A DNA stretch of 64,000 nucleotides from Octopus vulgaris (Eukaryota): NCBI GenBank assembly GCA_951406725.2, contig OX597826.1, positions 28,210,001 through 28,274,000 on the forward strand. Direction: 5' to 3'. Under the pieces are notes generated by a model. It did not search any database, was not told the origin of the DNA, and saw nothing but the letters and a program-made list of their open reading frames with translations. Of this stretch, positions 60,769 through 63,712 are shown piece by piece. Position numbers and translations under genes: made by a program. Within the stretch, counting starts at the first letter, position 1; every line of letters begins with the position of its first letter.

Positions 60769-60932
60769 GACAGGCTTCTTTCAGTTTCCGTCTGCCAAAT
60801 CCACTCACAAGAATCCACTTTGGCAGGCCCGCGGCTATAGAAGAAATTTGTTCAAGATCCCACAAAGTGGTACTGAACCCGGAACAATTTAGTTGGTAAG
60901 CAAGCTACTTACCACACAGCCACTCCTGCGCC
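60295..60932 (-). mobile_element. SINE family A split by a ~190 bp insertion in its internal microsatellite
   Basis: 3' half 60295-60495, 5' half 60765-60932 (ends cacacagccactcctgcgcc). Confidence 0.85.
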
Positions 60933-61123: not shown

Positions 61124-61160
61124 GGCGCAGGAGTGGCTGTGTGGTAAGTAGCTTCTTACC
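61124..61160 (+). mobile_element. SINE family A, first 37 bp (left of the insertion)
   Basis: ggcgcaggagtggctgtgtggtaagtagcttcttacc matches the head of the 60932 copy. Confidence 0.88.
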
Positions 61161-63360
61161 AGACAGACGTGTCGTTTTTTGCTCCTGCAAATGTCACGTG
61201 TTTGAACGTGAAATGTTGAACTTTTGACTCGGTGACAGGTAAGACGTTCTGTATTTTTAGAAGCATAGTGAAGTTTATTGCTTGCTTAATGTTATTTAGC
61301 AGTTAACGTTATCTAGCATTAATATTTTTTTGCGGGTAATAGACTTCACTTTACTTCAGATATATTTCTCTGCCTGTTGTCGTGTCTAAGGTCTCACTCT
61401 TTAGTGAGAATTGTGCTTTTTGAGGAGGCGTAGCCCCTCCGCAAAAATTAATTTGTTTGCTTGTGTTTTACTACTTCGCAAGAAAATTATAAAAATAAGC
61501 CACTATTGGATTACCTTTCGGACCCATTTTTGTGGAGGTTGTGTTGCAGTTGCGGCGTTCCAGGTTCAACCCAGGCCGAGAGTACCGCAAGGCCAGAATA
61601 TTTTTGCTGTGTTTTTTCTGTTTATTAACTTTCTTTTGAACTTCATTTAACCCCCCCCTTTTTTTTTTTTTCTTTATTGCGACTTTCCGTTAATTTCTTC
61701 CCTTCTGTTGTGCTTTCTCCTTTTTGTTTTTTCAAAAATCTATCAAATTTTATTTAGACTTTTGAACTTTTTTCTTCCTGCTTTTGAGTTTAATTTGAAT
61801 ATATTTTTAAAAAAACATGGCAATGAAAAATAACAAAATTTTGGAGTGGGAAATCATACCACCCAAAAAGTGGTTAAAAGACCGTGAAGATAGGACGGTG
61901 GTGTTGAGAACCTACTTCAAGGCACTTGACACCATCGCCCTATTCGAAAAGACGGCAATTGAGGAGGAGTTGGAAGAGTATTTGCCAACAATTAAATTCA
62001 TTTCCAGGGGTGTCAAATATGCAACGGTGTGGTTGCTATTTGACACCCCTGAAGAGGCTTGCATATTTGCTAGCAAACCCTTGGAGGGTAAGGAAATCTT
62101 ATTCCTGCCCACGTACAAAAAAAAGAAATTGATGAAAGCTTGGATCTGCGGACTGCCACCCGACATAGAACCCGAGTGGATAGAGGAGACTATCCGCCGG
62201 GGTCTGGGTGACAGCGAAACTAAGCTCCTCAATGTAAAAGTTCTTCCTGCGGCTGCTTGGGTTGGGTCGAAAGCAATTTTGACTCTGTGGACACAATCAG
62301 CCAATCTGGTTCTTCCAGATTTTTTGAAAATGGCCGGGTGCAGGTACCCGGTGATGCTTGAGGGTCGCCCCCCTAAGTGTCATCGGTGCTTGGAGTCCGG
62401 CCACATAAAGAAGAACTGTCCTCGGGAACAAAATAGGATCCCGGAACAGTTAAGTAAAACCCCTCTAGAAGAGGGAACGATAACGGCCGAGAAAGCAGAG
62501 GACTCCTCAAACAGAGGCCGAAAGAGGAAGGTGAGCAACAATGGGTGCTCACCAAAGGATAATAGGGATGAGGAGAGGAAGGCGAATCTTCCAGCCACGG
62601 AGGAGACGCACCCTCCCTCAGTTGAAAAGGGAAAAAAAAAAGAAAAAGAGGAAGAAAAACGGGACATTACCGGCTGTCAGTGTAGCACCGGAATGTTGCG
62701 GAACTACGTCGGTTGGGGTTATGCCACCGACAAGAGAAGGAATACCGTTGGCGGAAACTGTGCCGCCAACGAAAGAACTAAATGTGTTGGTCCTCTTCTA
62801 TAGAGGAGGAGAAATTGAAAAAGTGATGGAAGAGCACTACAAGGGAGCACCTTTAGCCTTCACACAGGACCCCGAATGGCCTCCGCAGGTAGCTGTGGAG
62901 GCCGTGGCGTTCGACGTGACGCTAGGGCTAAAGGAGCTCAACGAAGATTATAACTTGGTCCCGGGCGACGCGAACTCGGAACTTGACTACGTTCTGAGGG
63001 AGGCGTGGTTGATGGTGGAGGGCGCGGGCACAAGCTATTTCGAGGACGATATGTATTATTAGTAATGGACTTAAGTCCAAAAATTGAAAAATTGTAAGAG
63101 GATTAATACCTCGTTTTGTATTAATAATGGACTGCTAAGCCCAAAAATTGGGAAAAATTGTAAGAGGTTTTATACCTCGTTTTGTGTTTATCTTTTTAAA
63201 AAGAACAATGTTTTAGAGAAGCAAAAGTCGGCGGGCGCTTTCTGTCTTCTCCCATCCTTATCATCTTTCTTTCATTATCATTCACTTCATTAATGTCCTC
63301 GTCCAGCCCGCAAAGCTAACTTAATCTGTGTACTGCCTTTATGGCAAATGTTTTGAAATA
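61161..63360 (+). mobile_element. ORF1-only non-autonomous L1/Tx1-type retroelement (HAL1-like), 2.2 kb, with ~16 bp TSD
   Basis: T-rich 5'UTR, single ORF1, 300 bp 3'UTR ending at AATAAA; flanks aagtagctt-cttacc (61146-61160) / aagtagcttgtttgac (63361-63376); no APE or RT. Confidence 0.82.
61817..63062 (+). CDS. ORF1-like protein (~414 aa if one A is removed from the A10 run at 62632-62641): RRM-like region, CCHC knuckle, basic linker, acidic C-terminal domain
   Basis: CHRCLESGHIKKNC = CX2CX4HX4C; ORFs 61817..62803 and 62541..63062 differ by a +1 frame and join at the A run. Confidence 0.8.
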
Positions 63361-63712
63361 AAGTAGCTTGTTTGACAACCACATTGTTCCAGGTTCAGCC
63401 CCACTGCGTGGAACCTTGGGCAAGTATCTTCTACTGTAGTCTCGGGCTGACCAAAGCCTTCTGAGTGGGTTTGGTAGACGGAAACTGAAAGAAGCCCGTC
63501 GTATATATATATATATATATATGTGTGTTCTCACCAACATCACTTGATAACCGATGCTGGTGTATTTACGTCCCCGTAACCTAGCGATTCGGCAAAAGGG
63601 ACCGATAGAATAAGTACTAGGCTTACAAAGAATAAGTCCTGGAGTTGATTCGTTCGACTAAAGGCGGTGCTTCATCATGGCTGCAGTCAAATGACTGAAA
63701 CAAATAAAAGAA
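63361..63712 (+). mobile_element. SINE family A, remainder (right of the insertion)
   Basis: Resumes aagtagcttg..caaccacattgttccaggttcagcccc and runs to gactgaaacaaataaaagaata. Confidence 0.92.

Follow-up and report, generated by a model that had tools for sequence, protein, structure and literature searches.

The window analysed here (the whole stretch of 64,000 nucleotides of Octopus vulgaris DNA) contains a SINE copy that is split by an insert with a single ORF1, and the question raised by this locus is how an element that lacks the enzymes for its own insertion came to lie there, whether its position within the SINE is accidental or targeted, and which enzyme could have placed it. Based on the evidence presented below, we consider it very probable that the insert represents a multicopy, ORF1-only non-LTR retrotransposon found at one base of the SINE head, likely copied by the endonuclease and reverse transcriptase of a full-length L1/Tx1-type partner.

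The interrupted SINE and its insert

The layout given in the original prediction, a SINE split by a 2200-nt insert in the order head, 15-mer, insert, 16-mer and body, holds together with its coordinates (Table 1).

Table 1. Features of the interrupted SINE and of its insert, in window positions.
Feature	Position	Strand	Remarks
Host SINE 5' head, tRNA-like	61124..61145	+	same head upstream of 27 of 30 full-length copies
A-box-like motif within host SINE head	61134-61144	+	visible by sequence
5' target copy, 15 nt, one G missing	61146..61160	+	subfamily A variant carried by the element
Insert, 2200 nt	61161-63360	+	
5'UTR	61161..61816	+	starts with ~310 nt that occur in three interchangeable types (A, B, C) before a common body
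Donor-like GGTAAG in the 5'UTR	61238	+	
ORF1	61817..63062	+	414 aa when intact; frameshifted in the window copy
CCHC zinc knuckle	62378..62419	+	Pfam zf-CCHC
ORF1 C-terminal domain	62778..63059	+	common to four ORF1-only families; unmatched in partner ORF1
3'UTR	63063..63360	+	~62-nt internal duplication and ~150-nt conserved block
3'UTR internal duplication, ~62 nt	63057-63125 / 63119-63191	+	
~150-nt block kept across ORF1-only families	from 63215	+	
Near-complement of the target site	63310..63322	+	2 edits from the 11-mer
TGCC-N5-GGCA hairpin motif	63334..63346	+	inside the ~36-nt tail common to the partner
AATAAA across the element/target junction	63357..63362	+	no poly(A) tail
3' target copy, 16 nt, host-derived	63361..63376	+	bears private variants of its SINE copy
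Rest of host SINE (body)	63377..63710	+	
B-box-like motif of host SINE	63392-63402	+	visible by sequence
CORE-like stretch of host SINE	near 63410-63424	+	

In the host SINE, the motif at 61134-61144 is one that we take to be A-box-like from the box consensus, and the stretch at 63410-63424 presumably resembles the SINE CORE domain. ARAGORN, with default settings, found no tRNA in the 64,000-nt window, and a tRNA-like fold was obtained from one intact SINE head at a relaxed threshold only. The window also holds an uninterrupted SINE head at 60932 (minus strand) and about a dozen further SINE pieces, and at 37225-37514 lies a SINE copy with an inverted head duplication, a long hairpin for which Rfam returned sub-threshold hairpin matches only. 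The dominant SINEs of octopus are described as tRNA-Core and tRNA-Deu (PMC8967140).

The ORF1 of the window copy, originally called complete, is in fact frameshifted, with an extra A in the A-run at 62632-62641 splitting the intact 414-aa form into overlapping frames of 328 and 173 aa. The single 414-aa frame is found in 10 of the 30 best copies, and the full frame in 2 of the 29 copies picked by their tail. The length of the A-run is variable among copies, and slippage or an assembly error is a possible origin of the frameshift in the window; a programmed frameshift at this run was considered and rejected, because a single open frame crosses the run in 10/30 copies and its length is free to vary. 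The predicted zinc knuckle is present as a CCHC motif at 62378-62419, which Pfam matches to zf-CCHC with E 0.0056, short of its curated cut-off, and Pfam reports no other domain in this ORF1. The protein is organized as two predicted RRM folds, the CCHC knuckle, a low-complexity basic linker and a C-terminal domain of ~90 aa. Residues 1-208, when folded from a 35-row alignment, gave a model with pLDDT 85, whose best Foldseek matches are tandem-RRM proteins (E 5e-5), and language-model features lie nearest to CCHC proteins and ZCCHC3-type RNA-binding domains (0.91-0.93), which is a lead only. The ORF1 protein is predicted to bind RNA. The full-length fold, from a 5-row alignment, is poor (pLDDT 40). 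For the C-terminal domain (about 321-400), which is conserved among the ORF1-only families, Foldseek gave no match at E 0.001 or better (not a proof of a new fold), VIA-align a best Z of 4.7 and the Atlas search no usable match. Among named proteins, one of Octopus sinensis comes closest (63%), and the further named relatives are also octopod.

The insert was said to carry neither endonuclease nor reverse transcriptase, and this agrees with the tblastn search using the partner ORF2 (see below), whose best match in the insert has E 0.62, so that no ORF2 remnant is detectable. A private deletion in the window copy had been named as one danger to that reading; the other copies carry no ORF2 between ORF1 and tail, the distance from the ORF1 stop to the 3' end being 295-310 nt in 29/30 copies, with 1 unmatched.

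A family at a fixed SINE position

A genome search with the insert alone gave 3307 candidates, of which 40 were scored; these 40 main matches are 95-100% identical to it (10 of them whole-length and 30 starting from position 309-312). All 30 fetched loci (30/30) end at the same base and continue into the SINE body, with the SINE head upstream in 27 and the 3' end of another element in 3, and these loci show three different front ends of ~310-370 nt (A, B and C) on one shared body. An exact 24-nt tail pattern has 217 genome matches, followed directly by the target in 207, and the reversed-pattern controls for the tail and target searches gave 0. Furthermore, the first 30 tail matches by position, picked by the tail alone, are all at the SINE site (30/30), and 6 of the 10 tail-pattern misses, namely those within the first 100 rows, were examined and found also at the site, with point variants in the target. 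The perfect empty 33-nt site occurs 53,949 times in the genome; these tail, target and empty-site counts are of exact matches and hence lower bounds. Targeting just 3' of the A box, which had been offered as a possibility from a single copy, is thus borne out as recurrent, and the two outcomes that would have spoken against it, random flanks or a single-copy retrogene, are at odds with these counts (207/217 matches and 6/6 examined misses at the site; 217 exact 3' ends). As for the target itself, for which either the SINE or its parent tRNA had been suggested, the SINE is the flank in the loci read and a tRNA gene is not.

Over the 30 loci the insert body has a mean divergence of 1.8%, against 9.3% for the 140 nt of downstream SINE, and in eight young type-A copies the values are 0.5% and 7.5%, respectively; the distance matrices of inserts and SINEs are uncorrelated (rho 0.06, p 0.24). 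Since the inserts are so much less diverged than their host SINEs, they must be independent insertions. Their own 5' end is kept in 28 of 30 copies picked by tail alone, including one mini-element of ~100 nt. This mini-element (L182) joins a 5'UTR B start to the last 42 nt and is flanked by a perfect 16-nt duplication; if it was moved in its present form, it bounds the sequences required in cis. A recombinant subfamily (L195, L199, L200, L206) combines a type-A front and the last ~600 nt of the family (91%) with a different middle.

The junctions give further detail on how these copies were made. The original prediction of a target site duplication of ~16 bp stands in so far as there are target copies at both ends, while the 5' copy measures 15 nt and mostly comes with the element; the view that the two copies differ by decay of one duplication fails, given that the G-less version recurs at the 5' side of 17/20 type-A loci and at the 3' side of 0/20, where 10 different versions of the target copy exist, none without the G. 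The 5' target copy is largely carried by the element. The same mismatch between 5' and 3' target is seen in three partner copies (L210, L221, L224), two loci (L016, L023) have host-private variants duplicated on both sides of the insert, and in another (L015) the carried target copy comes after a complete 16-nt duplication of host sequence. In six 5'-truncated copies the duplications are only about 0-11 nt long, which means that the true cut stagger is not fixed by the data. At the 3' side, the AATAAA that had been described as the end of the insert is present, although it spans the junction and does not lie wholly within the insert, and no poly(A) tail was found at the junctions read.

Stacked copies were also observed, 4/29 tail-picked copies having another element upstream of them at the site (for a site occupancy of 1%, p is about 2e-4; for 3%, 0.01). 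Three of the upstream neighbours of these four copies belong to one family, and read-through dimers or template jumps may contribute to stacking. In one stack, two bases separate a target copy from the end of a Tx1-like element that belongs to another family (L071), so that stacks can take in unrelated elements too. Trains of at least 3 elements of different families, with single target copies between them, are found at one SINE site each in L121, L148 and L226.

Two further signals were seen in these elements. All three partner-type tail clusters contain an exact 9-mer complementary to the target, and 10/24 tail clusters have such a match to the 11-mer with no more than 2 edits, against 0/41 control rows (these being redundant and some of them SINE tails), a level reached 0-9 times in 100 by per-cluster shuffles. 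Three tails of a second lineage that still hit the site do not have this anti-target stretch, which is consequently not required. Base pairing of this stretch with read-through target was obtained in silico for both passenger and partner RNAs. Additionally, all three 5'UTR types and the partner have a donor-like GGTAAG at 60-120 nt from their start, and the partner has an acceptor-like stretch just before its ATG (L141, near 2900 and 3230). The intervening sequence is retained in all genomic copies read; one putative RNA contig is unspliced across the donor-like site, and no splice joint appears among 15 of 24 rows listed, leaving a 5'UTR intron as an unproven reading of the sequence. Contigs from four putative RNA runs cover 23-28 of 30 bins, and these contigs are evidence neither way on expression and splicing. 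The family sequence was also matched in four further runs, three with other organism labels, the matched stretch being without the SINE junction.

The probable autonomous partner and the ORF1-only lineages

At 66 junctions the tail has a different ending, and the 30 of these that were read belong mostly to diverged ORF1-only relatives, with one (L109) being the end of an ORF2. This led to a partner element of 5.44-5.46 kb, with a CCHC ORF1 of 467 aa and an ORF2 of 1133 aa containing the Pfam domains Exo_endo_phos, RVT_1 and zf-RVT; among 20 partner regions fetched, ORF2 is open in 8, ORF1 in 4 and both in 2. There are 111 exact partner tails, and 30/30 copies picked by tail are at the same base as the family. 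Three 5'-truncated partner copies are joined directly to the SINE head, and these truncated-copy junctions are the signature of target-primed reverse transcription. Partner and family stand in tandem at one site in L219, L227 and L228, and both are young, their copies being mostly 95-100% identical. At the nucleotide level, the only match between them with E below 0.1 covers the last 36 nt (78%). The original expectation of an APE-RT element with a shared 3' end therefore proved right as to its existence and its target, while the shared tail is ~36 nt instead of ~100. The TGCC-N5-GGCA motif is present in 103/116 junctions with six loop variants (in related copies, not independent events), and its stem is invariant among the target-site elements, so that these give no covariation support.

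Among solved sequences, the partner ORF2 is closest to human L1 ORF2p (E 8e-67; R2, 6e-20), and by sequence it is assigned to the L1 group. In the RT tree, which contains no Tx1 references, the partner is placed among other L1/Tx1-like elements of the same genome; its architecture and insertion specificity suggest Tx1 membership, sequence-specific insertion being described as common in the Tx1 clade (PMC4494074). The site is also the end point of at least one older element related to the partner (87% identity; L282, also L144), so that either ORF2 may have moved a given family. Further intact L1/Tx1-like families are numerous in the genome, frequently arranged head to tail (L061-L090, L123-L140); their tails have GCCC-N5-GGGT/C before AATAAA, a version of the hairpin changed on both sides. 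Several of them have a fixed 3' flank particular to them (L124/L125, L084/L090, L127/L130, L129/L131), a hint of further targets, and the same GCCC-N5-GGGT/C-type tail is found on another octopus SINE. Within the window, a decayed partner relative (11322-12946, minus strand, 71% nt) retains ORF1 and the beginning of ORF2, and a search of its ends gave no SINE target; beside it lies a long, foldback-like nested inverted repeat (13517-14867; arms of 312 and 237 nt, at 96% and 97%, respectively), and a different RT remnant, 23% identical to the partner ORF2, is located at 17275-18570 (minus strand).

Three other explanations have to be weighed against independent insertion by this partner. In one of them, SINE head, insert and SINE body would move as one composite, and the shared site would go back to a single ancient insertion, as might be thought from the same SINE sequence on both sides of nearly every copy and from a 5' target copy that does travel with the element. 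We regard this as almost certainly wrong, considering that the SINE halves are about five times more diverged than the inserts, are of different SINE variants and show uncorrelated distances, that the junction is also used by unrelated families and by the 5.4-kb partner, that truncated partner copies are joined straight to the SINE head and that array members are separated by single target copies. Alternatively, the true mobiliser could be another, unsampled autonomous element, nearer to the passengers in ORF1 and 3'UTR. The ~150-nt block of the ORF1-only 3'UTRs is absent from the partner, and sampling comprised 30/66 junctions, plus 30 loci and 20 regions of at least 150 zf-RVT matches, which is some room for such an element; the zf-RVT loci and regions read belong to other L1/Tx1-like families without the shared tail. 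Nevertheless, it is improbable: the sole ORF2 sequences in the 30 junctions are those of the partner (L109) and of a deleted relative (L119/L144), and the partner is young, with intact copies and co-arrays with the family.

A third alternative concerns the origin of the coding sequence: the family could have arisen recently from the present partner by deletion of ORF2, with ORF1 as a passenger without role. The two ORF1s are homologous (E 1e-24), and the full 414-aa frame survives in few copies (10/30 best, 2/29 tail-picked). However, their identity is 30% over 196 aa and the nucleotide likeness is confined to the last 36 nt, and the four ORF1-only families, ~60-67% identical to each other in the N-domain, form their own long-branched group (support 100/100) apart from 11 other ORF1s including that of the partner, in a tree that is unrooted and in which the partner itself is a long branch. 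Between the ORF1-only families, the dN/dS is 0.13-0.26 in the RRM-CCHC region (N-domain; six pairs of four families) and 0.45-0.68 in the C-terminal domain, ratios that are rough due to dS being near saturation in five of the six pairs. Among ten intact family copies, the changes shared between copies comprise 15 silent and 8 replacement changes, and the singletons 11 and 16, respectively. The dN/dS check that had been proposed for ORF1 returned values well below 1 between families, and the ORF1s of these families are, as judged from sequence, under purifying selection. We consider this alternative very improbable, and the divergence of the sequences argues that this ORF1 did not come from the present partner by a recent deletion. 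Short elements of a second kind, which differ in ORF1 and tail, also end at the site (L096/L142, L121, L145), which suggests more than one origin of short elements there.

Proposed mechanism and comparison with known systems

From the shared site, tail, age and co-arrays, we infer that the partner mobilises the passengers in trans. In the mechanism that we propose, the partner ORF2 would nick the bottom strand just 3' of the A box and take the passenger RNA via the shared 3' hairpin tail. Since AATAAA becomes complete only across the junction, we propose that this RNA reads through for a short distance into the downstream target; its pairing with the nicked primer would then produce 3' junctions that are exact and tail-less, possibly as in R1Bm, where downstream target sequence aids priming through such pairing (PMC7265360). 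At the other end, the RNA would begin with the target copy and the finished cDNA would anneal to the upstream overhang, which would explain why most copies are full-length and why the duplication is a mosaic, at most 16 nt long, that rebuilds the site; a similar annealing was proposed for R2Bm, whose 5' junction is helped by target sequence at the beginning of the RNA (PMC6895275). The passenger's own ORF1 protein would package its RNA and be kept by selection for that, and insertion would part the A and B boxes of the SINE, silencing that copy.

A wider reading, which we hold to be rather unlikely, sees the ORF1-only families as a long-lived guild of protein-coding hitchhikers on the SINE-specific enzyme of one LINE, with RNA:target pairing at both ends and ORF1 as an adaptor capturing ORF2 in trans. 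Pairing would then occur via the target copy at the RNA start, the read-through target at its end and the anti-target stretch of the tail, which is an exact 9-mer in the partner lineage and, at a different distance, a near match in the main ORF1-only one. The passenger ORF1 is without the N-terminal extension of the partner and has its own C-terminal domain instead. If true, this reading would describe a compact, partly RNA-assisted and site-regenerating insertion system needing a tail of ~40 nt.

The young age and intact copies of these elements make them a natural system in which to ask why non-autonomous LINEs keep ORF1, and their mosaic duplications, as records of a carried target copy pairing with host DNA, bear on 5' junction formation by AP-endonuclease LINEs. 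Known LINE targets are extended to a SINE head, a large, renewable and safe niche of at least 53,949 perfect empty sites, and targeted-insertion work could draw on a single-base-specific ORF2 for which a short tail apparently suffices.

With a LINE-homologous ORF1, no ORF2 throughout the family and many independent insertions, the octopus family can be classed as an ORF1-present non-autonomous LINE. In the strict sense, HAL1 is derived from mammalian L1, with an L1-type ORF1 and a poly(A) end; the octopus elements differ from it in their RRM-RRM-CCHC ORF1 and in having no poly(A) tail at the junctions read. The ORF1-present non-autonomous LINEs listed in the sources consulted are HAL1 (L1), HeT-A (Jockey) and Ag-Sponge (CR1), with no Tx1-derived case named in that list (PMC5786205, PMC5753468). 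Like these, the octopus family has one ORF1 and no ORF2, has repeated origins and appears to rely on an autonomous LINE; unlike these, it is specific to a single base of a SINE, has no poly(A) tail, adds a C-terminal domain of its own to the RRM-RRM-CCHC array and has ~36 nt in common with its partner. Our literature search gave no SINE-head-targeting LINE and no ORF1-only Tx1-type family (an entry may exist in Repbase, Bao and Jurka 2010, Kojima and Fujiwara 2004 or supplements, which were beyond its scope); ORF1-only LINEs and transposon-targeting Tx1 elements are each known, and their combination at a SINE head was not found in the literature searched.

In R2Bm, R1Bm and SART1Bm, target sequence in the RNA aids the junctions (PMC6895275, PMC7265360); these elements are autonomous and insert in rDNA or telomeres, whereas the logic described here is read from the genomic junctions of an L1/Tx1-type pair. 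Tx1-clade elements inside other transposons are reported for Xenopus (Tx1 in Tx1D) and for crocodilians (Tx1-Mar in Mariner-N4_AMi, with SINEU passengers), where SINEU-3 shows a 16-nt TSD and tandem insertions and its partner was inferred from shared target and age (PMC4494074). As in those cases, an endonuclease-RT LINE and its passengers share a site in another mobile element. The targets of Tx1 and Tx1-Mar are DNA transposons or LTR elements, their passengers are non-coding and Tx1-Mar copies are 85-87% identical to their consensus, whereas in octopus the target is a SINE head, the passengers code for ORF1 and the elements are mostly 95-100% identical, with intact copies.
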